A stretch of 64,000 nucleotides of DNA from a virus (Duplodnaviria; Caudoviricetes): the IMG/VR virus record IMGVR_UViG_3300032226_000829; one strand, written 5' to 3'. The position numbers and the translations under genes were made by a program. The notes beneath the pieces were generated by a model. The model saw only the letters and a program-made list of their open reading frames with translations, was not told the DNA's origin and ran no database searches. Shown in pieces: positions 49,249 through 64,000 of the stretch (positions are counted from its first letter, which is position 1; the number at the start of each line of letters is the position of its first letter).

Positions 49249-50555
49249 GAAAAATATTATTATTAATGTTATTATTATGCTCAGATGCTTGGGCAACACT
49301 GTCATATAAAACATATAGAGGCACAGGTGCTTATCCTAGTATGCCATATTACGGCACAGGTCAACTATATTACCCAACTGTATTAAGCACTGGAACAGTG
49401 GCTAATATTAATTACAATTGGGGCGGTGGTTATGTTTTAGATTCAGGTAGACATGAACAAGTCATTGTAAATTTTTATGGTTATATCACCATACCAGGAT
49501 CAGGATCTCAAACAATATATTTTTATAGTGCTAGTGATGATGGGTTTTATCTGAGGGTAAACAATTCCACAGTTATTAATAGTTGGGTTGAACAAGGAGT
49601 ATCATATTACAATGGTTCAGGAAGTATTGTACTACAAGGTGGACAATCATATTATATCGATGCTTGGATGTATGAGAATGGTGGAGGTGCGGCTGCTATG
49701 TTATATTGGAATACAGGTTCAGGTATAACCGTAGTTCCAAGTTCAGCATTAACTACAACTATGCCAGCAGGTTCAGGAGGTGGAGGCAGTTACATCAGCA
49801 ATATCACAAACACACAACAGAACAACATCACTGCCAATCTGGGCAGAACCACAGCACTGGCCAACGGCAATGAGATCTACATAGATCAAGTGGGAAACAA
49901 TAACACAACAACAATCACTCAAAAAGGTAATAATAATAAAATCACAGGTACCACACAGCAAACTGCCACCATATCAGGCAACAGCAACTCTACCACTATC
50001 AGACAGAACAGTGGCACAGGTAAAAATTTAATAGATCTAAATGTGACCGGCACGGGCAGCAACACCCTCAACCTCAACCAGGGCTATCTCACAGATGGCA
50101 CACTGAGCGGCAATCAACTGGGCAACAACTATCAGAAAGTGGATGTGCAGGGCAACAACAACTCATTGACCACTCAGCAGAATAGAGATGTGGGCACAGT
50201 GGGCAATTACATGGAACACACTGTGATTGGCAATTACAACAGCATCACCAGCACACAGAGCGGAGACAACAAATTATTATTCAATTCTATCACGGGCAAC
50301 TACAACACTGTGAGCACCACACAGTCAGGCACAGGCGCTCAACACTATATTGATTTGACACTGAATGGTGCAGGCAACACTGCCACTGTGAATCAGAGTG
50401 GCAACACACAGAACAAGGCCACCATAGTGATCAACAATTTGGGTGGATCAGCGGGTGTGAATCTCACACAGACCGGCGGGCAAACCTACAACATCACTAC
50501 CAACTGCGTGACACTGGGCGGTTGCGGCACTACCACGGTGAACCAAGCACAATAA
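49245..50555 (+). CDS. PA14 lectin-like domain fused to curlin repeats
   Basis: Start 49245 (ATGA overlap); INYNWGGG, ASDDG, YENGGGA (PA14); GSGGGGS linker; NEIYIDQVGNNN curlin repeats. Confidence 0.8.
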   Translation: MRKILLLMLLLCSDAWATLSYKTYRGTGAYPSMPYYGTGQLYYPTVLSTGTVANINYNWGGGYVLDSGRHEQVIVNFYGYITIPGSGSQTIYFYSASDDGFYLRVNNSTVINSWVEQGVSYYNGSGSIVLQGGQSYYIDAWMYENGGGAAAMLYWNTGSGITVVPSSALTTTMPAGSGGGGSYISNITNTQQNNITANLGRTTALANGNEIYIDQVGNNNTTTITQKGNNNKITGTTQQTATISGNSNSTTIRQNSGTGKNLIDLNVTGTGSNTLNLNQGYLTDGTLSGNQLGNNYQKVDVQGNNNSLTTQQNRDVGTVGNYMEHTVIGNYNSITSTQSGDNKLLFNSITGNYNTVSTTQSGTGAQHYIDLTLNGAGNTATVNQSGNTQNKATIVINNLGGSAGVNLTQTGGQTYNITTNCVTLGGCGTTTVNQAQ

Positions 50556-50566
50556 ATACTCATATT

Positions 50567-52603
50567 ATGAAATGGGTCAGTCCTTGGACAGCAATCATCA
50601 CTTTGATATTAATCCTCACTGTTAGGATGGCAGACCCCGCATTTGTGGAGAGTGTGCGACTGAGATACTTTGACACTCTGATCACTGGCAAAACTGCCAC
50701 ACAAAACAACATATACACTGTTAACATTGACGAGAAGAGTTTGGAGCAGTATGGGCAATGGCCATTCCCCCGAGATGTGTATGGCCGGATTATCCAAGAT
50801 TTGTATGACAGAGGAGCAGGGTTAGTGGTGTTCAACGTGCTGATGCCAGAACCAGATCGCAGTGGCAAAGATGCGACATTGGCAGAAACCATGCGAAAAT
50901 ATCCTGTGGTGTTGAGCAATGTGCCAGCACAACAGACCAAGAATGAACCCCGAGTGCCAGGCTCAGCAGTGCTGGGACCAGAACATCTTAACACCATTGT
51001 GAAATATTCAGGCATGATTGCCAATATACCGTCATTGGAAAATGCTGCTGTGGGAGTGGGAACCACCAACACACTGCCAGAGATAGATGGCGTGAACCGA
51101 CGACTGCCTCTGATAGTCACTGTGGATGGAAAATTATATCCCAACCTTGCAGTGGAAACTCTGAGAGTGGCCACAAACAATTCTACATTTCAAGTCAAGT
51201 TAAATGTGAATGGTGTGGAGAAGATGAGACTGCCTGGAGACATAGGCATCATTGACACAGACTCCTTGGGCAGAGTATGGATAGATTGGAGTCAACGGAA
51301 TCACTCAGTGTCTTTAAATGATCTACCCGCAGACTTCAAAGGATCCATAGTGATAGTGGGCACATCAGCAGCAGGCATAGCCAATCCAGTGGCCACAGCC
51401 ATAGGACCAGTTTGGCCTCAGGATCTACAAGCAGCCGTGATAGGCACCATGATCAACAAAGTGAATATCAAGAGACCTGATTGGGCAGAGGGTGCAGAAA
51501 CAATCAGTTTAATACTATTGTCCTTGACTTTATTATTTTTAAGCAGATGGGTTTATGTGGGCATGGCAATGGGAGTCATTATGATTGTTGCCGTGGTTCC
51601 TTTGAGCAATCTTTTTTACACACACAATCTTTGGCTGTTGGATGGCACTCTACTGGTGGCAGGATTGACATTGGTGATGCTGCATGCCTATGGTATCAAA
51701 TTTGTCAGTGAGTATCTACAGAAACAGAGAATCAAGAAACAATTTGGTGGATATGCATCTCCCATGGTGGTTGAAATGTTGCAGAAGAATCCAGACATAA
51801 TCAAACAAGGTATTAAGAAAGAAGTATCCATCTGTTTTTCAGATCTGCGTGGATTCACTCCACTGGGAGAATCATTTGGCAATGATGTGAAAGGATTGAC
51901 TGAAGTGATGAATGGTTATATGGATGCCATCACACAACCTGTGTTGGATGCCAACGGCATGATCATCAAGTACATTGGTGATGCCAGCATGCACATTCAC
52001 AATGCACCCATGGATGATCCAGAACATCCTAAAACAGCAGTGCAGACTGCACTTCGCATGTTGAAGGCAGTGGAACGTTTCAATGAGACATTAACAGCCA
52101 AAGGTAGACCCATTGTGGGCATGGGTGCTGGTATCAACACTGGTCTGGGTTATATCGGTGAAATGGGCAGCACACAGCGACATTCATATGATGTGTTGGG
52201 TGATGCTGTGAGCACCACAGCAAGATTGGAAAGTCAATGCAAGAACTATGGAGTGCTATTGATAGTGGGTCCTGAAACCCATCGCAGAACTCAGAATGAT
52301 TTCTTCTATCTCAAACTGGATGATTTGGCAGTGAAAGGCAAAACTGTGGGATTGGAGATCCACACAGTGTTGGATTTGAATGCTGCGGAACATGCAGATG
52401 ACAAACAAACACATGATGCCATGCATGCGGATTATAGGAATCAAAAATTTGATGCAGCCATTCAAAAATGCAAACAGTTGCAAGACCGATTTGATGGTCA
52501 GATGAAAAAATACTATGACATGTGGCAAGAGCGTTGTGAATACATGAAAACACAAACGTTGCCCAAGGATTGGACGGGTGTGTTCACAGCCACCAGCAAG
52601 TGA
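50567..52603 (+). CDS. CHASE2-domain class III adenylate cyclase
   Basis: TM + CHASE2 (VNIDEKSL..YGQWPFPR, VFNVLMPEPDR), 3 TMs, FSDLRGFT, KYIGDA, GINTG, YDVLGDAVSTTARLE, VKGK. Confidence 0.92.
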   Translation: MKWVSPWTAIITLILILTVRMADPAFVESVRLRYFDTLITGKTATQNNIYTVNIDEKSLEQYGQWPFPRDVYGRIIQDLYDRGAGLVVFNVLMPEPDRSGKDATLAETMRKYPVVLSNVPAQQTKNEPRVPGSAVLGPEHLNTIVKYSGMIANIPSLENAAVGVGTTNTLPEIDGVNRRLPLIVTVDGKLYPNLAVETLRVATNNSTFQVKLNVNGVEKMRLPGDIGIIDTDSLGRVWIDWSQRNHSVSLNDLPADFKGSIVIVGTSAAGIANPVATAIGPVWPQDLQAAVIGTMINKVNIKRPDWAEGAETISLILLSLTLLFLSRWVYVGMAMGVIMIVAVVPLSNLFYTHNLWLLDGTLLVAGLTLVMLHAYGIKFVSEYLQKQRIKKQFGGYASPMVVEMLQKNPDIIKQGIKKEVSICFSDLRGFTPLGESFGNDVKGLTEVMNGYMDAITQPVLDANGMIIKYIGDASMHIHNAPMDDPEHPKTAVQTALRMLKAVERFNETLTAKGRPIVGMGAGINTGLGYIGEMGSTQRHSYDVLGDAVSTTARLESQCKNYGVLLIVGPETHRRTQNDFFYLKLDDLAVKGKTVGLEIHTVLDLNAAEHADDKQTHDAMHADYRNQKFDAAIQKCKQLQDRFDGQMKKYYDMWQERCEYMKTQTLPKDWTGVFTATSK

Positions 52604-55335: not shown

Positions 55336-55725
55336 TTATCTAATAGAAGTTATATGAGACAAAGCACAATTTGAATTGGCTGCATAAGCTGTGAACATAC
55401 CTGAAGTATATCCACCAAATCCATTCTTTGCTCTGTAAGTCACAAATAATTGATGTTCTCCAGAATTGTTGATAGGACTTATTTTTGTTTGTATGTGTTC
55501 AAATGATTTAGGATCTCTCAATCGAGATTTGATTTCTCTATTCATATCGGCATTGGCGCCATCAACGTGGGACAAGCAATGAAATCCTGCCATTTGTTCT
55601 GCTTTTTTTTTAGCTTCATATTTGGCACTGCAGTCTTTGCAAATTAAGTTGGTATATATTACAATTCCAATAAAAAGAATGGTTACACTTACAAGTGAAA
55701 ATACTAGTGATTTTTTAAAACTCAT
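55336..55725 (-). CDS. Membrane-anchored hypothetical protein
   Basis: N-terminal TM; LRDPKSFEH, YRAKNGFGG. Confidence 0.7.
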   Translation of the reverse strand: MSFKKSLVFSLVSVTILFIGIVIYTNLICKDCSAKYEAKKKAEQMAGFHCLSHVDGANADMNREIKSRLRDPKSFEHIQTKISPINNSGEHQLFVTYRAKNGFGGYTSGMFTAYAANSNCALSHITSIR

Positions 55726-55756
55726 TGTGTGCTCCTTTGTTGTTTGTTTATAGTAT

Positions 55757-55796
55757 ATTATAGCATATTTTGGTACCAAAAGTCAATACCAAAATT
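55757..55796 (-). promoter_or_regulatory. Early promoter cassette P1
   Basis: TTGACT-N18-TATAAT containing the palindrome TTTTGGTACCAAAA, plus TACCAAAAT. Confidence 0.8.
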
Positions 55797-55806
55797 GTTC
55801 ACGTAT

Positions 55807-56025
55807 CTATTGGGTTTCCCCGCCAGCTTCTATGCTGCGGGTGATCTGCCGGATCCGATTCTCCAGCTCTTCGCGTGCAGCTGGCTCTGAATACTTGGCA
55901 AGGTTGTTCACAGTGTTGATGGAGGAGATCACGTCCCGGGCTTGTATGGGCGTGCCCGATACCAATTGCACCGCAGCACAATTGCTCAGCATCACACTCA
56001 ACATGATCAACACTGCGATTCTCAT
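55807..56025 (-). CDS. Small lipoprotein
   Basis: Signal peptide with lipobox LSNC. Confidence 0.6.
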   Translation of the reverse strand: MRIAVLIMLSVMLSNCAAVQLVSGTPIQARDVISSINTVNNLAKYSEPAAREELENRIRQITRSIEAGGETQ

Positions 56026-56165
56026 TATCTGATCCTACGGTTTGCGATCTGATCCATGCATCTTCTCATGGCTCTCAGATCATGTTTCACATCTATCAAT
56101 AGGAATCCCAGATAGAATGCCATTGCCCAGATCATCACTATCAAAACTATAACGGCTGCGGTCAT
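56025..56165 (-). CDS. Small membrane protein (46 aa)
   Basis: Translated by hand MTAAVIVLIVMIWAMAFYLGFLL...; start/stop overlaps on both sides. Confidence 0.5.
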   Translation of the reverse strand: MTAAVIVLIVMIWAMAFYLGFLLIDVKHDLRAMRRCMDQIANRRIR

Positions 56166-56473
56166 TTGCCCCTCGCGATCTCTGCTTCCAGTTCAATCAT
56201 CTGCTCCACCTCTGCGGGTATCTCTGTTTGTGTTTTTGGTACAAAGTCATACACATACTCCACTCTGTTCCTGTTCACACCCTTGCCCAGTGCATACATC
56301 TTCACTTCTGTGTTTGAGTTCACCTTCTGTTGTAAATCCTTTCTAAACCATTCTGCCTGATCTGCATCGATCAGTTCGCAGTAGAGGCTGCCCCCCACTA
56401 TGTCCTGCTGAGTGATGCCCGTTTGTTCCTTGGCATACTGCAGGATTTGTTCTGTTGTATTTAATTGTGCCAT
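56162..56473 (-). CDS. Hypothetical early protein
   Basis: AAGGAG RBS behind P2. Confidence 0.7.
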   Translation of the reverse strand: MAQLNTTEQILQYAKEQTGITQQDIVGGSLYCELIDADQAEWFRKDLQQKVNSNTEVKMYALGKGVNRNRVEYVYDFVPKTQTEIPAEVEQMIELEAEIARGK

Positions 56474-56498
56474 CTTGTGCTCCTTGTTAATTGTTTAT

Positions 56499-56537
56499 AG
56501 TATAACATATTTTGGTAGTCATTGTCAATACCAAAAT
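56499..56537 (-). promoter_or_regulatory. Early promoter cassette P2
   Basis: TTGACA-N18-TATACT flanked by inverted TTTTGGTA / TACCAAAA. Confidence 0.8.
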
Positions 56538-56601
56538 ACTCCGCCATCTGTGCGGGTCTTGGGGGCACCGTGATGAAGCAGTGCCCCGAGGTATCGCAAC
56601 T

Positions 56602-56805
56602 TTAGGTTGTAGCAACCGGTTGCTTGCGATTCTTTAATCTTTCAATGTCCTGCATGCTGAGTCCTCTCAGCTGCATTTGATGGGCCAGCTGCTGTGCCAA
56701 TGCTAAGTCCGCATGCTGCAGTGTGCCCAGAATCAAATCTGGTGTGGTTTTTGTGATGTGCTGCACCCACTGTTCCACTGGATGCAATGCTCTTGAGTTT
56801 GCCAT
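56602..56805 (-). CDS. Hypothetical protein
   Basis: GAAGG RBS, 67 aa. Confidence 0.55.
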   Translation of the reverse strand: MANSRALHPVEQWVQHITKTTPDLILGTLQHADLALAQQLAHQMQLRGLSMQDIERLKNRKQPVATT

Positions 56806-56856
56806 GTGTGTTCCTTCTGTTAGTTGTTACAACTGTAGCATCTGATTGGGCGAGTG

Positions 56857-57162
56857 TCAACTCACCAGGTCTGTCAGTTTCACGCTCAGCTGATATTCGT
56901 CATACTGTCTGTGATATTCCTGTTCATCCAATTCTTCCAGATGTGAGTACTGCTCATGATTGTTCTGATCATCACCCCATCTCAATTGTATGGTACACTC
57001 TTTCTTGTCTGGATTCCAATCCCACAGTGTGCCCTCACTCCAGCCTTCTCGTTTGAAGTAATAGTTGGCTCTGTGGCACTCTGCTCGGTATTCAGCCCAG
57101 GCAGTGAGATTCTCTTCGGTGAATTCTCTCTTCAATCTGCTCTCGTCCATCATTATGTACAT
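56857..57162 (-). CDS. Hypothetical protein
   Basis: Start reassigned to 57162 behind GGAGG. Confidence 0.6.
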   Translation of the reverse strand: MYIMMDESRLKREFTEENLTAWAEYRAECHRANYYFKREGWSEGTLWDWNPDKKECTIQLRWGDDQNNHEQYSHLEELDEQEYHRQYDEYQLSVKLTDLVS

Positions 57163-57166
57163 CTGT

Positions 57167-57358
57167 CTATGCCTCCAAGGTTCGGGACACAGTGGCATAA
57201 CCCACTTCTATACCCGCTGATGGTTTGCGTTTGTTCGGATACTCCACTGCCAGCTGTAGTGTGAAGCCGTCATCTTCACCCCGCCATGTGAACTGCCAAT
57301 CTTCTCCGTACAGTTTCTTCAATAGTTGCACCAACAGTCTTTCTTCTCGCTTGGTCAT
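57167..57358 (-). CDS. Hypothetical protein
   Basis: GGAG RBS; in the co-oriented array. Confidence 0.55.
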   Translation of the reverse strand: MTKREERLLVQLLKKLYGEDWQFTWRGEDDGFTLQLAVEYPNKRKPSAGIEVGYATVSRTLEA

Positions 57359-57633
57359 GCAGTCTCCTTGGTTGATTGTATATCATAAGGTTGTTCACCA
57401 TCTGCTATCATGCTGAGGTAGCCTGGTTCACTCTCCTGCCATTCTGCTGTCAACTCCTCTGCAGAATAATTGTCATAGCCCACAAACCCGTGCTGTCTCA
57501 TGTCACTCAACCAGTTGTAGTCCTCTAGATGGATGTTTCTCATGATCAGATACACATCATACTGACACAGTCTTTCGATTACCTCAGCACGAGACAAAGC
57601 CACACCTTCACTGTCTGTTATGAATGCGGTCAT
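57355..57633 (-). CDS. Hypothetical protein (paralog of 59653-59871)
   Basis: IERLCQYD...GFVGYDNYSAEEL. Confidence 0.6.
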   Translation of the reverse strand: MTAFITDSEGVALSRAEVIERLCQYDVYLIMRNIHLEDYNWLSDMRQHGFVGYDNYSAEELTAEWQESEPGYLSMIADGEQPYDIQSTKETA

Positions 57634-57634
57634 A

Positions 57635-57820
57635 CTAGAATGCATACCTTTCATATCGCTCCAGCAGTGCGTCTGCCAGCGGTTTACGATCCAATGCATA
57701 GCACAGTGCCATCATGTAGCCCAAGTCATAGGCCACATCTGTTTCTGTCAACTGATGGTGAGCATACCTCATGTCTCTGATCACCTGTGCCAAAGTTGTT
57801 CTCAATTTAGATTGATCCAT
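57635..57820 (-). CDS. Hypothetical protein
   Basis: Start MDQSK right after the upstream stop. Confidence 0.55.
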   Translation of the reverse strand: MDQSKLRTTLAQVIRDMRYAHHQLTETDVAYDLGYMMALCYALDRKPLADALLERYERYAF

Positions 57821-57821
57821 A

Positions 57822-58160
57822 TTAGTCTGCTCTCGATTCTGCATGGGCGTTGATGCCATATGCGTTCAATACCTTTGCGAATGCTTCACAAGCCTCTTCC
57901 TTGATGCTCATGCTCTGAGTGCCACACAAGTCATGACCTCTCATCACATCATATGAACTGATGCTGTAGCCGGTTCTCCAGTGCTTGGATCCCAACTGAT
58001 TGTCTTTTAAAAATTTAACAAATGGGCCTCTGGCTGGTCTAATCACCACTGTGCCAAATCCACAGTACAAGGGTTCACCATGTGCGGCATGGAATGCATC
58101 CACTGCTTCACAAGCTGTGTCACAGGCTTCCTTGAATATAGTTTGCATTGTTTTCATCAT
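57822..58160 (-). CDS. Hypothetical early protein
   Basis: GAGG RBS behind P3; CGFG, QSMSIKEEACEAFA. Confidence 0.7.
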   Translation of the reverse strand: MMKTMQTIFKEACDTACEAVDAFHAAHGEPLYCGFGTVVIRPARGPFVKFLKDNQLGSKHWRTGYSISSYDVMRGHDLCGTQSMSIKEEACEAFAKVLNAYGINAHAESRAD

Positions 58161-58186
58161 CTACCTCTGTTTGTTATTGTTATATT

Positions 58187-58256
58187 AATAATAACATCTG
58201 ACTACCAAAAAATCAACATCTAAATACCAAAATAGATGTTCTATTTCAACGAGTTA
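58187..58256 (-). promoter_or_regulatory. Early promoter cassette P3
   Basis: TTGATT-N17-TATTAT; TACCAAAA at 58203 and 58225; TCA-N5-TTA at 58246. Confidence 0.75.
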
Positions 58257-58486
58257 ATGTGGGCCAAATATTCCTTCAGTTCCTGATCTCTCTGCTGCTG
58301 CTGCAGAATGTATTGTTCTGCTTCAATCACATCATCCTGATGAAACTCCAATCTGTTGTCGGGATATTCATATTCTGAATGCTCATCCTCAATGATCACA
58401 TGACGGCCCACTATTTCATCCACCACTCCCCAAATGTCCTGATCTCTCAGTCTCACTCTTGTGCCCACTGTTATATTGCTGCTCAT
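58241..58486 (-). CDS. Small SH3-like hypothetical protein
   Basis: ITVGTRVRL...WGVVDEI. Confidence 0.6.
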   Translation of the reverse strand: MSSNITVGTRVRLRDQDIWGVVDEIVGRHVIIEDEHSEYEYPDNRLEFHQDDVIEAEQYILQQQQRDQELKEYLAHINSLK

Positions 58487-59025
58487 GCTGCTCTCCTTTG
58501 TTTGATTGATTGTAAATGTCTCTTTAGACTGTCAATGTGCTCCTGTATAGCCACTGCCTCCAATGGTTGAAATGCCACTGCTGCATCATAGTCCTTCTTG
58601 GCATCACTCCAAACTCTTGTGGCATAGAACCATTCACCCTGAGGCTTGCCCCATGCATCCTTCACACCTGTGTCCTTCAATAGGTAGATGTACTCCTCAC
58701 CTGAACGGAATCCATTCTCTAGGTATTCCTGCTCTGATTTATATGTGTGGGCTTCTTGATCCTTCTCACCACGGTCTCTGCTGTAGTAGACATTTTGCAC
58801 ATCGTGCAGCTCATTGTTCCTGTCATCAAAATCAGTCTTGTCACCTATGATCTGATTCCATACCGAAGCATTTCCCAACTCAATGGCTGATTTAACTTTG
58901 ACCATGTCAGTCCAATGGTCGCACAGTTTGTAACCCAATCCACCTGGATAACCATCCCAATGCTGATAGGCAGCTGTGATCTCACCAGTGCTGGATTTTA
59001 TTCCTATTCTTGCTCTTGTTGCCAT
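58483..59025 (-). CDS. Conserved phage hypothetical protein (HWDGYP family)
   Basis: MATRARIGI...YQHWDGYP..LG..L; EEYIYL. Confidence 0.75.
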   Translation of the reverse strand: MATRARIGIKSSTGEITAAYQHWDGYPGGLGYKLCDHWTDMVKVKSAIELGNASVWNQIIGDKTDFDDRNNELHDVQNVYYSRDRGEKDQEAHTYKSEQEYLENGFRSGEEYIYLLKDTGVKDAWGKPQGEWFYATRVWSDAKKDYDAAVAFQPLEAVAIQEHIDSLKRHLQSIKQRRAA

Positions 59026-59048
59026 GTGTGTCTCCTTTTGTTGCTATT

Positions 59049-59109
59049 ATTATACTGCCTTACTACCAAAAAGTCAATACCAAAATAAGTGTTCTGTTTC
59101 AATCACTTA
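59049..59109 (-). promoter_or_regulatory. Early promoter cassette P4
   Basis: TTGACT-N17-TATAAT; TACCAAAA at 59064 and 59078; TCAATCACTTA at 59099. Confidence 0.85.
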
Positions 59110-59340
59110 TTAGGCGTGTTCTTGCTCTTCACTTTTCACCAGTGTGATGATCTCTTCTTCCACACTCATGTCATCTTCCGCCAATTCGAAATCACAGTCC
59201 AAATCATCCTGGGACAGCTTCTCTTCTGCTTCTTCTTCATCTCGGGCAGTGACATAGGCCACTTCCGTGATTGAGCCTGTGCTGACTCTGACCACTCGGT
59301 ATCTGTTGATTGCTCCTTCTGGTGCTGTATGCTCAGTCAT
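59110..59340 (-). CDS. Small acidic hypothetical protein
   Basis: Start MTEHT behind AGGAG; VTARDEEEAEE. Confidence 0.6.
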   Translation of the reverse strand: MTEHTAPEGAINRYRVVRVSTGSITEVAYVTARDEEEAEEKLSQDDLDCDFELAEDDMSVEEEIITLVKSEEQEHA

Positions 59341-59359
59341 TGTGTTCTCCTGGTTATTG

Positions 59360-59656
59360 TTATTCAAAGTATTCATCAAACACTATCTCCACCTTGGCGA
59401 TCCTGCCATCCCGATTATAATGTGCTGTGACTGGATACACTCCATCCCCCCAACCTGTCTGCACAGTCATCGCTATGGGTATCTTGATTGTGTTCTTGGT
59501 CTTCTTGGTGCTGATCTGTCTATGTCTATCCTTGTCTGGATAGATGTCATAGATGTCATCACCCTCAATGCTGAAGTGATCGTTGATATAGCAGGGATCC
59601 GATATCAACAAGGATCCTGAATCCACACCCACTTGTCCTATGATTTTCTTTTTCAT
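59360..59656 (-). CDS. DUF4241-like protein
   Basis: IGQVGVDSGSLLISDPCY ... TGWGDGVYPV. Confidence 0.65.
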   Translation of the reverse strand: MKKKIIGQVGVDSGSLLISDPCYINDHFSIEGDDIYDIYPDKDRHRQISTKKTKNTIKIPIAMTVQTGWGDGVYPVTAHYNRDGRIAKVEIVFDEYFE

Positions 59657-59871
59657 CCTAACATCCTTTCCATTTCTTTTCTTTCTGCTATGGCCTCATT
59701 CAACTCTCTGTCGGTGTAATTGCCATAACCTTTGAAACCATCCTCTAATATGCTGTCTAATAACTCCAGCCCAGCACCGTCACCCTCATTGATGAACTCA
59801 AAGTCCTTCTGGCACAACCATTGTATGGCCGCTTCTCTGTCTGCTTTTCTCTTAATTTTTTTAAGGTTCAT
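59653..59871 (-). CDS. Hypothetical protein (paralog of 57355-57633)
   Basis: IQWLCQKD...GFKGYGNYTDREL. Confidence 0.6.
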   Translation of the reverse strand: MNLKKIKRKADREAAIQWLCQKDFEFINEGDGAGLELLDSILEDGFKGYGNYTDRELNEAIAERKEMERMLG

Positions 59872-60257
59872 ACATTCTCCTTGATTGATTTTAAACTGTA
59901 ATGTACTTCTGCGGGACCAGTTTCATCTGACCATGGATCCAACACCACATCACCATCTTCGAAAGCGAAGCTGTTGTCGGGATTCCATACCACCTTGCCT
60001 AGGTATTCTGTGTTGCCTGTGTCTGAGGTATAGTTCGCATCCACTACCACAGTCTCCACACCTTTGTCTTCCAATGCAAGATCTGCTGTGATCCTGTCAT
60101 AATTGATACCACCACCATCTCTGAATAGGTCGTCGGCCTCATCCTTATTGCGAGCCAACACATCCTGCTCCACCAACAAGGTGTAGTAGGTTCTTTTTCT
60201 GTAGGCGTTGAGCCCTAGGTTTTCTGCCCTAGGGTATAATTTTGTTTTTGTAGTCAT
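59868..60257 (-). CDS. Hypothetical protein
   Basis: Start MTTKT by TAATG overlap. Confidence 0.6.
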   Translation of the reverse strand: MTTKTKLYPRAENLGLNAYRKRTYYTLLVEQDVLARNKDEADDLFRDGGGINYDRITADLALEDKGVETVVVDANYTSDTGNTEYLGKVVWNPDNSFAFEDGDVVLDPWSDETGPAEVHYSLKSIKENV

Positions 60258-60553
60258 TAGGCTGTCACAGTCTGTGGAATCAGTCTCAACATTCCACCCG
60301 GTATGTTCCATCTTTGGTTATTGTCACTGTGGACTAAAATGTATTTGATCTTGGCTTTGATCACAGAGCCAGTAATAACTCGACCACTTCTGCTGGAAGT
60401 GAATTCCACTCTGTCACCAGCTTTGAAGTTCTGAGTGCTCTTGAAATGCAATTGATCTCTTCTCATCTTCACAGCTTCAACGATTTTATTAATGTCTGAA
60501 CTGTCCATAGTTAGGATTTGATTCAGTATGTCTACCAACGGAGTTTTCATCAT
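60257..60553 (-). CDS. SH3/KOW-like hypothetical protein
   Basis: FKAGDRVEF...WNIPGGML; GAGG RBS behind P5. Confidence 0.7.
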   Translation of the reverse strand: MMKTPLVDILNQILTMDSSDINKIVEAVKMRRDQLHFKSTQNFKAGDRVEFTSSRSGRVITGSVIKAKIKYILVHSDNNQRWNIPGGMLRLIPQTVTA

Positions 60554-60578
60554 CACCTCTTTGTTTGTTTATAATACT

Positions 60579-60649
60579 AGTATAACACCACCACTACCAA
60601 AAAGTCTACCAAAAAAGAACCAAAATAGGTCTTCAAATTCAATCACTTA
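60579..60649 (-). promoter_or_regulatory. Early promoter cassette P5
   Basis: TAGACT..TATACT; ACCAAAA units starting 60595, 60607, 60618; TCAATCACTTA at 60639. Confidence 0.8.
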
Positions 60650-60650
60650 G

Positions 60651-61034
60651 TTAGGCCACAGCCTTGGGTTGTGTGCTCATCAGCTGTTGCAACCTGTCCC
60701 ATTGATCTCGGGCTTCCTGCACAGTTTCAGCAATCAAGCCATGATCATCCTGAGTCATGCTGAGTTCCAGCTCTTCCCAAGAGTCAAACAACATGCCACC
60801 TAGGTTGTTGTCAGCCAACTGTACTCCATCCAGAAACACCTTGGCTCTCACCACCACATAGGGCATGTCACTTCGCTCCACCTTGCGAGCTGTTTCTTTA
60901 TACCACTCTGCGGATTCTTCTGGGAATAGACTCTCCAGAGGCTCTTCCTCATAGGTGTAGTCCACCTTCACTTCAAATGGTGCATGTTCAGTCTTGAATT
61001 CTATCAGATCGTGCCAGTATGTGGATAGGCTCAT
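60651..61034 (-). CDS. Hypothetical protein
   Basis: 127-aa acidic ORF; TAATG overlap. Confidence 0.7.
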   Translation of the reverse strand: MSLSTYWHDLIEFKTEHAPFEVKVDYTYEEEPLESLFPEESAEWYKETARKVERSDMPYVVVRAKVFLDGVQLADNNLGGMLFDSWEELELSMTQDDHGLIAETVQEARDQWDRLQQLMSTQPKAVA

Positions 61035-61264
61035 TATTCCATGCCTTTCATCTGTGCCATCATGTGTCTCATCATTGACATGGCCTTATCAATCTCCTTT
61101 TGTATTTCTTTATCAGTGTGTTGAGTCTTGGGCACACACACAGCCTTCACTGCCTGCTCCTTGAGCAATAGGGCCTGTTTCATGCACAGGTCTCTGTCTT
61201 GGAACTGTGCCAGATCAGTCATGCCTGTCTGAGTCACCAGCGCCAATGTATAAATCAAGTTCAT
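61034..61264 (-). CDS. Hypothetical protein
   Basis: AAGGAG RBS behind P6; two Cys. Confidence 0.65.
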   Translation of the reverse strand: MNLIYTLALVTQTGMTDLAQFQDRDLCMKQALLLKEQAVKAVCVPKTQHTDKEIQKEIDKAMSMMRHMMAQMKGME

Positions 61265-61286
61265 ATCATCTCCTTTGTTATTATTA

Positions 61287-61356
61287 ATACTAACACCTCA
61301 CTACCAAAAAGTCTACCATTTTTGGACCAAAATAGGTCAATGATTTCAGTGACTTA
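61287..61356 (-). promoter_or_regulatory. Early promoter cassette P6
   Basis: TAGACT-N17-TAGTAT; ACCAAAA units at 61302 and 61325; TCAGTGACTTA at 61346. Confidence 0.8.
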
Positions 61357-61620
61357 TCGGTGGTACACACTCACCCTCTGAGCATTTGCCCTGTGACACT
61401 CTCTGCAAAAACCCCTGCTTCGGGGTCCACGATATCTGCGTCTGATGGGTATGATCTCACTCAACTCCCGGATCCTCTGTAGGTTCTCCTCTGTGATGGG
61501 CACCTGTTTCACTATGGCCTTCTCACCCATGTGAGCCTTGTACTGTTGAATCCACTGTTGCAACTGGGTGGGCAAACAAAATTTTACCAACGGATCCCAG
61601 CCTGTTTGAATGGTGTTCAT
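61354..61620 (-). CDS. Hypothetical protein
   Basis: RRRYRGPR...CHRANA..VSVY; AGGAG RBS. Confidence 0.65.
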   Translation of the reverse strand: MNTIQTGWDPLVKFCLPTQLQQWIQQYKAHMGEKAIVKQVPITEENLQRIRELSEIIPIRRRYRGPRSRGFCRECHRANAQRVSVYHR

Positions 61621-61802
61621 GCCACTCCTTGGTTATAGTTGTTCCACATCTCCTGGGCCAGTTCGCTGGCTTTTTCTGCAAATTCATCCTCATGACTCAG
61701 CACAAACTCCTCCCAGATCTCGTCCTGGATCTTGGGGTCTATGTGACTCTTGTCGATGTACTGCCACAAGCTGTTTTTGGGTACCTGTATCTTCTTCATC
61801 AT
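61617..61802 (-). CDS. Hypothetical protein
   Basis: AGGAGG RBS; WEEFV. Confidence 0.6.
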   Translation of the reverse strand: MMKKIQVPKNSLWQYIDKSHIDPKIQDEIWEEFVLSHEDEFAEKASELAQEMWNNYNQGVA

Positions 61803-61815
61803 CACCTCCTATGGT

Positions 61816-61995
61816 TTATATTTCCACCTGTTCCATCAACACCACCTCGGCGCTGATGGCCGTCACACCCAGGGCCTTATGATCCTGGTCGAACTCATAC
61901 TTGGCTGCCTCCAATGCTCTCCCTTGATGGGAGTCCTGGATGTAATAACTGTTCTCCAGGGCCGCTGATCGGAGTCTAAAGTGCCATTGTGTCAT
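61816..61995 (-). CDS. Hypothetical protein (59 aa; absent from ORF track)
   Basis: Translated by hand MTQWHFRLRS...EQVEI; ATG 5 nt after the P7 -10 box. Confidence 0.55.
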   Translation of the reverse strand: MTQWHFRLRSAALENSYYIQDSHQGRALEAAKYEFDQDHKALGVTAISAEVVLMEQVEI

Positions 61996-62000
61996 AATTC

Positions 62001-62071
62001 ATTATAGCACACCCACTACCAAAAAGTCAACCAAAATTGAACCAAAATCAGTGAGCATTTTCAATGGGTTA
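62001..62071 (-). promoter_or_regulatory. Early promoter cassette P7
   Basis: TTGACT-N18-TATAAT; ACCAAAA units at 62017, 62029, 62040; TCAATGGGTTA at 62061. Confidence 0.85.
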
Positions 62072-62072
62072 A

Positions 62073-62729
62073 TCAGCCTATGATGTTCTGGGCCTTTCTA
62101 TCCACAATCAATTCTCGCACCTTCTGTTCTGCCTCAGTCTCCTGTGTGGCTTCGTACTCCTGCATGGATTCCACCATGCCGAATGTCTCATCCAGCAATC
62201 TGCCATCCGCATGCTGAGTCCAGAATGGGTCGTTAGATTTTGGAAATTGTTCGGTCTCATAGCATCTGTCAGACCCATCAGTCCACACACCAAAGAACCC
62301 CACGCCGGGCTCATGATATCTGCACTCAATGCTCAACTCAGGATGGGTTTCCATCAGCTTCTCCATCACGCCCAAAGGGGGTGCCCAGGCTGTGTCAAAC
62401 TGAAACAGAGCAATGCCCTGATTGCCCACATCCTCATCGTAGTCCACCTGCATGTCATCATTGTCACCACCTGCGTTCCATTTGGTACCCCAGTTGTTCA
62501 CACACCAGTCATACCAGTTTCGGTAGCCATATCGTTTTAAATTAGATTTTTCTGCCTTCACCAAAGCCTTCTGTTCAGGTGAATCATCAGCACCTTCACG
62601 GCCTGCTGTGATGTCCAACTCTGGGGGGTATGGATGTATTTTCATAAAATCTAATCTGTGCTCCACTAGGGTCTTGAGGATGTGCTGGGGACCTTGTATC
62701 TCCACCACATTGTTGCAATAATTTGGCAT
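62073..62729 (-). CDS. DUF1281/YubB-like ferredoxin-fold protein
   Basis: MPNYCNN, NWYDWCVNNWGTKWN, FDTAWAPP, YHEPG. Confidence 0.75.
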   Translation of the reverse strand: MPNYCNNVVEIQGPQHILKTLVEHRLDFMKIHPYPPELDITAGREGADDSPEQKALVKAEKSNLKRYGYRNWYDWCVNNWGTKWNAGGDNDDMQVDYDEDVGNQGIALFQFDTAWAPPLGVMEKLMETHPELSIECRYHEPGVGFFGVWTDGSDRCYETEQFPKSNDPFWTQHADGRLLDETFGMVESMQEYEATQETEAEQKVRELIVDRKAQNIIG

Positions 62730-62752
62730 ATTTGCTCCTTGTTGTTTCTTTC

Positions 62753-62823
62753 AGTATAGCATCACTCACTACCAAAAAGCAACCAAAAAATTACCAAAAT
62801 AGATACCAATTATCAAGGGGTTA
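62753..62823 (-). promoter_or_regulatory. Early promoter cassette P8
   Basis: TATACT -10; units at 62770, 62781, 62792, 62804; TCAAGGGGTTA at 62813. Confidence 0.8.
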
Positions 62824-62920
62824 TTCGGGAGGCCCAGTAAACTTAGTTTAACTACCCACAATTGCGCCCCACACAGGTGTGCCGTAACTGTACCATAACG
62901 TTGCCAATTTCTATCCAGAA

Positions 62921-63085
62921 CTGAGGGGGGTGTTAACTCACCTTATAGTGATATCAATTATATTATTATATTATATACGAATACCCCCTGGGGTTCACAG
63001 CGCTGTCGGGGGGTCAAAACCGGCCCTTATAGTAATATATTATATTATATTATATTACACAGAATTCGGGAGGGGGTGGAAAACC
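62921..63085. repeat. Duplicated G-run + CCTTATAGT + (TATAT)n unit
   Basis: Two copies plus a third G-run; non-coding. Confidence 0.7.
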
Positions 63086-63127
63086 GGTACTTGGGAGCCT
63101 TGAGAGCCCCCATGTACAGATCGGTGA

Positions 63128-63421
63128 TTATGCTACCTGAGATTGTGCAGACACAGTTTTTGCCGCTGATCCACAATTTCTGGCGATGAAGCCATCTGCC
63201 AGCAATTTCACTTCGGGCTTGTTGAAATCTGCCTGAGTGATCATCCACTGTATGGCCTGCTCTTTGCTCATAGGCTGTGGTGTTTCTCTCAGCAATATAT
63301 TGGTGTGTTTTCTCATCACCAAGGTTTTGATTCGGCTCACTAGATCCTGAGCAAATCTGATTTTTGTCTCACCCTGTGGTGATGTGCTGATGCCCACCAC
63401 TTTGTATGTTTTTGTGTCCAT
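63128..63421 (-). CDS. Hypothetical protein
   Basis: YKVVGIST..GETKIRFAQD; start 63421 or 63457; promoter TTGACA-N16-TATAAT at 63507-63534. Confidence 0.65.
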   Translation of the reverse strand: MDTKTYKVVGISTSPQGETKIRFAQDLVSRIKTLVMRKHTNILLRETPQPMSKEQAIQWMITQADFNKPEVKLLADGFIARNCGSAAKTVSAQSQVA

Positions 63422-63873
63422 TTTACTATTGGCTCTTCTTTCTTTTGTTGCGGTCACTATGACCAGTTGTTATTGGTGCATGCTGTTGCACACACTGTTG
63501 CTTACCATTATAACATCTACAGCCAAATTGTCAAGCTGTATGGTATTGGCAGTGTGCAAATAAAAGTCAGTGAATTCAATGGGTTAGCAGGGGTGGTGTG
63601 CCAAAATACAAAGGCTCGAACCCAATGGATGTGACGGATGGGCACTGTGGGGTCGGAATAGGGCAGAATGCCCCCACGGTTGAGCGGATTTGGGTGGTCT
63701 GAGCATCTTTTGAACCGTGAGAAGTGGTATTCCTGAGGAATACTGTGCAAAAAAATTTGGAAACGGTAGGTGCCGACAGGCATAGTTAAAATACTCTCAG
63801 CCCAAGCACACACTGTAAATGCATATACCGTAGCACACCATCGGAATTGCCAAATCCAAATGTACTCAGTTAA

Positions 63874-63970
63874 TTCCCCAATACTTCGCAGCGAGGCCTA
63901 CACCCGTTCCCCAATACTTCGCAGCGAGGCCTACCCTTGTATTAGGGTTTCTCACCATACTCGCAGCGAG
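63874..63970. repeat. 28-bp direct repeat x2 plus a degenerate third copy
   Basis: TTCCCCAATACTTCGCAGCGAGGCCTAC at 63874 and 63907; CCATACTCGCAGCGAG at 63955. Confidence 0.85.
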
Positions 63971-64000
63971 CTCTCCCATCCAGCCCCACCCTTGGAGTAG

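Follow-up and report, generated by a model that had tools for sequence, protein, structure and literature searches.

An array of early-promoter cassettes resembling promoter-early stem-loop elements in an uncultured freshwater jumbo phage

Promoter-early stem-loop (PeSL) cassettes are known from the T4-type phages RB49/phi1, PST/T4, and nt-1/KVP40 (PMC2839356, PMC4122927), and crossovers in PeSL mini-circles were mapped to the zone between the -10 box and the ATG (PMC2839356). Here, an array of nine related intergenic cassettes (P1 to P9) is described in a 64,000-nucleotide stretch of viral DNA (IMG/VR record IMGVR_UViG_3300032226_000829), the whole of which is called the window below. The cassettes lie on the minus strand between positions 55726 and 63586, and each carries a near-consensus sigma70 promoter. 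The stretch is probably an array of PeSL-like composite intergenic cassettes in the early region of a jumbo phage that uses the host polymerase.

The window is part of a large myovirus genome, encoding a tail sheath of 1070 amino acids (aa), a large terminase (TerL), helicases, and a DnaB-like helicase. TerL shares 55% identity with its counterpart in the PA5oct group of Pseudomonas jumbo phages and resembles those of Sinorhizobium and Erwinia jumbo phages less closely, and megablast against GenBank phages revealed no near DNA match to the window. The window or a close variant is present in sequencing runs from 17 studies, mostly of lakes or freshwater (six on record as RNA libraries), and its lake-metagenome scaffold, L135 (ENA ERZ28594650 scaffold_6), is 145 kb long. 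Judging from these sequences, the carrier of the array appears to be an uncultured freshwater jumbo myovirus distantly related to PA5oct, with the array in its hyperplastic early region. Strong use of Shine-Dalgarno (SD) sequences and canonical sigma70 promoters point to a Gram-negative, probably proteobacterial host.

Cassette anatomy and occurrence of the motif

A preliminary description of this DNA drew attention to the bipartite motif ACCAAAAT-N12-TCA-N5-TTA, which was assigned to an undescribed regulon with a two-contact regulator, to recombination cassettes, or to both. The motif occurs in exactly six copies in the window, all on the plus strand (starting at 58226, 59079, 60619, 61326, 62041, and 62793), and in none of 100 dinucleotide-preserving shuffles. 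Its fixed 21-nt register holds, while the starts first given (58225 etc.) are each too low by 1 because they are the starts of TACCAAAA. This shorter word is about five-fold enriched, with 19 copies against 4.1 expected, 15 of which lie within 55.7 to 62.8 kb.

Read on the transcribed strand, TCA-N5-TTA becomes a 13-nt gene-end box, TAA-N4-yTGAww, and ACCAAAAT becomes a T-tract unit, cTATTTTGGT, that starts exactly 12 nt after the TGA of the box. The register is fixed because box and T-tract unit form one conserved module of about 31 bp. From 5' to 3' on the minus strand, the cassette runs from the box through cTATTTTGGT and a second TTTTGG, which in most copies directly precedes the -35 hexamer, to the -35, the spacer, the -10, the leader, and the ATG. 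The -35 hexamer is TTGACT or TAGACT and the -10 hexamer TATAAT or TATACT in their consensus forms. The spacer has a third TTTTGGTAG at its start and TGn at its end, and the A/C-rich leader, of the TATAAAC type, is followed by AGGAG and the ATG.

Eight such cassettes were already recognized, and a ninth lies at 63.5 kb; their promoters score 9 to 12 of 12. A promoter scan ranked them at the top, with 11 to 12 of 12 for those at 63534, 62030, 59077, 56528, and 55786 and 9 of 12 for those at 60608 and 58216, and an extended -10 (TG at -15/-14) is found in eight of the nine. The sigma70-like promoters proposed for the early-region gaps are supported by consensus matches and by conservation in relatives. 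That the stretch is a promoter array is almost certain, and the mechanism of the upstream module is what we infer. The promoters would be strong immediate-early promoters read by the host sigma70 polymerase. In the common form, T-runs lie near -52, -42, and -30, 11 to 12 bp apart, and in cassettes of the 41-nt class TTTT at about -53 to -50 and -42 to -39 falls where UP elements carry their A/T tracts (about -38 to -59). The tracts at about -52 and -42 would act as a UP element or as curved DNA.

Other good sigma70-type promoters in the window (28129, 33108, 35381, 37481, and 39287) have neither the box nor TTTTGGT; the first three have their -10 box 5 to 6 nt before the ATG, as P7 does. Within the window, the motif marks the early array alone, which fits both duplication within the array and a distinct immediate-early class. 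Viral contigs scanned with a 15-nt spacer word gave single chance matches only, and a gapped two-word pattern search gave five single matches, one of which (in L130, L133, and L134) is a lone similar promoter.

Conserved sequence, decayed hairpin, and phased box

The proteins of the array match contigs from IMG/VR and JGI at 55 to 99% identity, and contigs with at least 16 early genes in common (37 to 95% amino acid identity) carry the same cassettes; one of them, L119, shares at least 16 early genes with the window in heavily shuffled order. The spacing of the motif, non-conservation of which had been named beforehand as grounds for refutation, is kept in relatives. Near-identical strains (L144 to L153) and intermediate relatives (L154 to L162) retain the whole box-N12-ATTTTGGT unit, and the sister clade (clade B, comprising L119, L143, L122, L129, and others) keeps the box as TAAGTCATTGATT and does not keep the TTTTGGT unit. 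In 57 to 61 distinct cassettes from related lake contigs, TAA and TGA are near-invariant and N4 is variable. An alignment of 19 cassettes (A1) has A6, T13, G14, and A15 invariant and T5, A7, T12, and T29 at 90% or more, with the N4 between TAA and TTGA varying. Logos of 35 and 26 distinct cassettes give the same pattern, with TATTTTGGT fully conserved in the clade of the window (clade A). Spacers of relatives also keep the words GGTA/TACC.

These data bear on the view that the cassettes are recent duplicates of one intergenic region, whose shared words have no function beyond the core promoter. Cassettes within the array are about 73 to 84% identical over 56 to 104 nt, and the motif is confined to the array, as common descent alone would have it. 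However, TAA, TTGA, and TATTTTGGT are unchanged across contigs whose proteins have diverged to 55 to 80% identity, while N4, the 8 nt after the box, and the middle of the spacer vary freely, and the distances between box and promoter fall into discrete classes. Descent without function is therefore very unlikely.

A second alternative is that box and T-run form an intrinsic terminator that insulates each module, as in classical PeSLs, whose stem-loops were shown to terminate transcription (PMC2839356), with the fixed spacing reflecting hairpin geometry. The consensus does contain a 7-bp inverted repeat, TAAGTCA-N10-TGACTTA, which is 67.7% paired against 12 to 40% in slid controls. In addition, the P4 and P6 copies have folding energies of -10 kcal/mol (z -2.3 to -3.0), with AUUUUGG coming next, and the box lies at gene ends, its TAA being the actual stop codon in 18 of 52 cassettes. 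However, these two are the only ones of the seven window copies that fold better than shuffles, and covariation of the repeat is not above shuffles (49 of 500). Across all distinct cassettes the mean folding z is 0.12 in clade A and -0.79 in the sister clade, where the mean energy is only -3.4 kcal/mol, and at least six of the seven stem pairs are kept in only 5 of 29 clade A cassettes. Conservation is highest in the TTGA of the loop and in the TAA, and not in the stem. The cassettes have the U-tract of an intrinsic terminator but, in place of a G/C-rich hairpin, AU-rich stems with a 10-nt loop or no stem at all; a terminator scan of the window called nothing at any cassette. RNA-library contigs cross P3, P4, and P5, a weak point since DNA carry-over is possible. 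Since hairpins are lacking from most of the window copies, these are unlikely to act as terminators, and this explanation as a whole is improbable. It is concluded from the sequences that the gene-end hairpin is probably ancestral, as in PeSLs, and that what is kept now is the sequence.

The distance from box start to -35 start is 30 to 32 nt in 18 distinct cassettes, 40 to 42 nt in 29, and 52 nt in 5, with none between; a stray value of 114 is probably due to chance. The classes are about one helical turn apart and, given the spacer lengths, place the box center near -60, -70, or -80 relative to the predicted transcription start. The extra 8 to 11 or 20 nt between box and -35 arose at least four times from unrelated sequence, which would happen by chance, were lengths free, with a probability of about 0.02 by the authors' estimate. 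Helical phasing of this kind would be required by a bending protein or an upstream activator, whereas neither a terminator nor a simple linker needs it.

The box is the reverse complement of WATCAANNNNTTR, which, with a 5' A-tract, we take to be the core consensus of integration host factor (IHF), and its conserved and variable columns coincide with those of the consensus. A perfect core is present in 21 of 26 clade B and 4 of 29 clade A cassettes, the remainder having TTTCAA or ATTCAA; in the window it occurs only at 62811-62823. Loose cores number 28 in the window against 18 expected, with the cassette copies making up most of the excess. The AAAA of ACCAAAAT lies 11 nt before the IHF-like core, and in clade B AAAA adjoins it. 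The box would be a putative site at which an architectural or activating protein binds on one face of the DNA, and host IHF would be the most likely candidate, although the identification as IHF specifically is tentative on sequence likeness. Several other readings of the box were set aside. A second sigma70 promoter, TTGAAA...TATTTT, would have a spacing of only 9 nt; a MotA-type middle promoter has the wrong box spacing, a good -35 being present; none of the FNR, CRP, Fis, NtcA, LexA, and Pho-box consensus sequences fits by eye; and as a three-frame translational stop the box closes two frames with TAA and TGA but leaves the conservation of TTGAww and the phasing unexplained.

Whether a dedicated phage or host regulator binds the TTTTGGTA/TACCAAAA words, and possibly the box, so that an immediate-early regulon is switched as a block, is the most substantial of the alternatives. 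The words are repeated about every 11 to 12 bp across the -35 and the spacer and appear over the core promoter in direct, inverted (P2), and perfectly palindromic (P1) form, which is the classic position of an operator. The TTTTGGT part is invariant over 9 nt in 35 distinct clade A cassettes with varying flanking columns, GGTA/TACC recurs in relatives at the corresponding part of the spacer between different flanks, and the other sigma70 promoters of the window lack the motif. However, a Pfam search of the 28 early open reading frames (ORFs), the only ones searched, found no DNA-binding domain. Near-consensus promoters need no activator, the phased T-runs at -52, -42, and -30 also look like curved or UP-type DNA, and a structural element would account equally well for half-sites that occur in either orientation and differ in copy number. 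Such a regulator is possible but rather unlikely. A match to HTH_Tnp_1 in the early ORFs (E 0.03) was below threshold and was not counted. The undescribed regulon of the preliminary description also loses ground because the two motif halves are different things, a gene-end box and a T-tract at the UP-element position, the sister clade shares the box without the ACCAAAAT half, and the layout is that of described PeSL cassettes (PMC2839356, PMC4122927). What survives of its two-contact regulator is that the box is still likely to be a protein site, being conserved in the absence of a hairpin and in helical phase with the promoter.

Several points weigh against PeSL-like cassettes with an IHF-type box. 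Neither the UP-element nor the IHF reading explains why GGT strictly follows each T-run or why GGTA/TACC words are kept in spacers of relatives, and a dedicated regulator therefore stays in play. The absence of the motif from other sigma70 promoters of the window fits spread by duplication as well as a special regulon. The helical-phase argument rests on about four independent insertion events (roughly p 0.02 by estimate), most boxes in the window differ from the IHF core by one base (T instead of A at position 2), and the presence of IHF in the host is assumed from Gram-negative, Proteobacteria-type signals. In the lambda H' IHF site, the A-tract lies 8 nt before the core, so that the A-tract here would be about 3 bp further away. 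Any transcription start or end named here is a prediction from assembled contigs. Distant relatives, moreover, are rearranged also at junctions without cassettes, which speaks against an exclusive role in rearrangement.

In another phage lineage, represented by two IMG/VR contigs found via the 218-aa protein of the array (L138 and L139), arrays of at least 20 early promoters occur with their own invariant spacer word (TTGACA-aGCCGATAAT..TGTAGAAT), each after a TAAGT..ACTTA hairpin and an AT-rich run. Spacer words specific to a lineage thus seem to be a recurrent feature of early-promoter arrays.

Gene exchange at cassette borders and the individual cassettes

Lake strains exchange whole genes at cassette borders. 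Cassettes make up less than one-tenth of the region, yet about five of nine strain-level events border on or within one, several of them between the -10 and the ATG. The module at 61283-61798 (minus strand), made up of genes 61617-61805 and 61354-61620 and P6, is absent in L145, L146, and runs X3, X15, and X16, and the junction of its deletion lies in two short similar leaders (ATAAAC..AGGAG). L144 has an unrelated gene of about 70 codons in place of the same two genes, and the replacement runs precisely from the ATG to the TAA in the box of P6. The minus-strand gene 57822-58160 is polymorphic over 57798-58153, being absent in L148, L149, L150, L152, L153, and L157, with the break at the start codon behind P3. 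The minus-strand gene 55336-55725 is polymorphic over 55340-55742; it is absent in L144 and L154, where the break lies between the -10 and the ATG and a P1-type promoter drives a cell-wall hydrolase gene directly. One hybrid promoter is left after this loss, as expected from recombination between two tandem cassettes, and a decayed promoter-like remnant, TTGTCT-16-GATAAT, is found at 55362-55335. In addition, insertions of 0.9 kb (L145) and 3.8 kb (L160) lie at the upstream edge of P2, directly after the hairpin at 56550-56585. The recombination cassettes first proposed are accordingly supported by whole-gene deletions and replacements bordered inside or at the edge of cassettes, but the crossovers fall in the leader between -10 and ATG or at the box or stop codon, not in the bipartite motif itself, and at greater divergence gene order is shuffled also inside operons without a cassette.

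An apparent indel relative to L135 (57622-58153) is a 100-N scaffold gap and not a variant; its right border, 58153, is that of the polymorphic gene 57822-58160, and strain heterogeneity probably broke the assembly there. Skips of 71 to 181 nt in the strain comparison are probably diverged patches and were not used.

The conserved flanks of the cassettes would act as linkers that supply homology for gene shuffling, a role already proposed for PeSLs. A bolder proposal is that the box, with its ancestral inverted repeat, and the T-tract are the site of a dedicated protein that both sets up the immediate-early promoters, acting from one helical face, and marks the exchange borders. This is a long shot. 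The replacement in L144 fits it but does not require it. If true, the array would be a phage system that exchanges gene cassettes, with a function comparable to that of integron attC sites, and not a case of plain homologous recombination.

All nine cassettes are on the minus strand. P9 (63422-63586), absent from the preliminary description, has the box TAACCCATTGAAT at 63574-63586, 52 nt before the -35, and lacks TTTTGGT. Its promoter (-35 TTGACA at 63529-63534, a 16-nt spacer, and TGt-TATAAT with the hexamer at 63507-63512) is followed by a long leader and a gene for 97 aa (63128-63421). P8 (62730-62823) has its box at 62811-62823, where the plus strand reads TATCAAGGGGTTA, the perfect IHF core; TTTTGG starts at 62799, 62788, and 62777, and the -35 TTGCTT (62777-62782), -10 TATACT (62753-62758), and SD AGGAG precede gene 62073-62729, which encodes a 218-aa protein with a DUF1281_C domain. 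P7 (61996-62071) comprises the box at 62059-62071, TTTTGG at 62047, 62036, and 62024, -35 TTGACT (62025-62030), and -10 TATAAT (62001-62006). Only 5 nt separate this -10 from the ATG of gene 61816-61995, and the mRNA is therefore likely leaderless.

P6 (61265-61356) has its box at 61344-61356, the TAA of which is the stop codon of gene 61354-61620, and a weak hairpin (AAGTCA/TGACCT); -35 TAGACT (61310-61315), -10 TAGTAT (61287-61292), and an SD lead to gene 61034-61264. In P5 (60557-60649), the box (60637-60649) is followed by three TTTTGG words at 60625, 60614, and 60602, -35 TAGACT (60603-60608), -10 TATACT (60579-60584), a TATAAAC leader, and gene 60257-60556. P4 (59026-59109) is a short form, with its box (59097-59109) 32 nt before the -35. 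Its 7-bp hairpin, ATAAGTG/CACTTAT, is followed by a T-run (-10.1 kcal/mol, z -3.0), and -35 TTGACT (59072-59077) and -10 TATAAT (59049-59054) precede gene 58483-59025 (180 aa). At P3 (58161-58256), the box (58244-58256) lies, as first noted, inside the last codons of the upstream gene (58241-58486), whose stop codon is the TGA of the box; -35 TTGATT (58211-58216) and -10 TATTAT (58188-58193) serve gene 57822-58160.

P2 and P1 are without a box. In P2 (56474-56536), TTTTGGTA adjoins -35 TTGACA (56523-56528) and forms an inverted pair with TACCAAAA in the spacer; the -10 is TATACT (56499-56504) and the gene 56162-56473. In P1 (55726-55794), TTTTGGTA adjoins -35 TTGACT (55781-55786), the -10 is TATAAT (55757-55762), and the gene is 55336-55725. 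The palindrome reported for P1, in which TTTTGGTA and its complement combine, is present as the perfect 14-bp TTTTGGTACCAAAA at 55768-55781; it shares one base, the final one, with the -35 and occupies the upstream portion of the spacer.

Between gene 56602-56805 and P2, the minus strand contains a G/C-rich hairpin at 56550-56585, GGGGCACTG-loop-CGGTGCCCC. It is a real structure, since the stem in L145 differs by two double changes, both compensatory, while the loop is identical. Upstream of the array, about 1.5 kb (62830-64000 and L135:8400-9900) is non-coding and contains several repeat families: GTAGGCCTCGCTGCGAAGTATTGGGGAA is present in two exact copies of 28 nt, another repeat in two copies of 39 nt, and G/C clamps are flanked by AT-rich TAATATAAT runs. 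No Rfam family was found there, and the stretch may represent an origin, the end of the genome, or an RNA. RNA-library contigs give essentially no cover of the non-coding DNA upstream of P8 beyond about 62.98 kb, which does not speak for a start site, since contigs cannot show starts.

The cassette-driven genes are ORFans of 46 to 218 aa. The G+C content is about 36% (30 to 39%) in 1-40 kb and 41 to 47% in 40-64 kb; the early/accessory part differs in base composition from the structural/replication part of the genome. At 50522-52603, a 693-aa protein has CHASE2 and class III cyclase domains (among the Pfam matches listed with the contig) and belongs to PHROG 35576, a family of unknown function; phages do not usually encode a membrane nucleotide cyclase.

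Comparison with known systems

Phage early promoters stimulated by IHF include lambda pL and Mu Pe. The cassettes would resemble these in the IHF-like core, in an A/T-tract on the same side, and in the placement of the site on one face of the helix, 60 to 80 bp ahead of a sigma70 promoter. Unlike lambda pL and Mu Pe, in which a single promoter is concerned, the putative site is present at every module here, and core position 2 is mostly T. T4 early promoters are very strong, are read by the host polymerase, and have UP-like A/T tracts near -42 and -52; they are controlled through ADP-ribosylation by Alt/ModA. The array appears similar to them in its extended -10 features and in phased A/T tracts at alpha-CTD positions, whereas the tracts here carry an invariant GGT, with a third copy inside the spacer. 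The stem-loop-less variant with an IHF-like phased box offers a concrete and cheap test for an architectural protein in early transcription or module exchange, and the nine near-consensus promoters might also be of use as strong portable promoters that form a graded series.

PA5oct relatives, jumbo phages to which the array's carrier is related by TerL, are described as relying on host RNA polymerase with TTGAC/TATAATA promoters, and the array appears to agree with them in promoter type; as far as the parts of that report considered here go, only the -35 and -10 boxes are described, with no TTTTGGT motif and no upstream box (PMC7318152).

The closest likeness is to PeSLs. Both are composite intergenic elements in a hyperplastic ORFan region, with a gene-end element, an AT-rich stretch, a sigma70-type -35/-10, an SD, and the ATG in the same upstream-to-downstream order (PMC4122927), and in both, close relatives differ by whole-gene indels or replacements with crossovers between -10 and ATG. 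The near-consensus intergenic promoter and the location among variable ORFans with cassette-bordered indels and replacements are thus present here. However, a stable terminator stem-loop just upstream of the promoter is not, the inverted repeat appearing only in the consensus and the sister clade. The defining G/C-rich stem-loop is replaced by an AU-rich, mostly decayed inverted repeat, of which the loop and 5' arm survive as an invariant, helically phased box, together with three phased TTTTGGT words. PeSLs are also characterized by measured promoter and terminator activity and by the formation of mini-circles; the promoters of the lake-phage cassettes are predicted from sequence. Since the stem-loop is missing in most copies, the cassettes are best viewed as a PeSL variant and not as a member of the class. 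With them, PeSL-type cassettes, known from cultured coliphages and vibriophages of the T4 type, would be extended to a jumbo phage lineage that is uncultured and abundant in lakes and whose TerL is 55% identical to that of PA5oct, and in natural populations of many lakes single genes are deleted or swapped exactly between a cassette leader and the next gene-end box. New relative to PeSLs are the lineage and habitat, the invariant phased box with its IHF-like core, and the triple TTTTGGT word.

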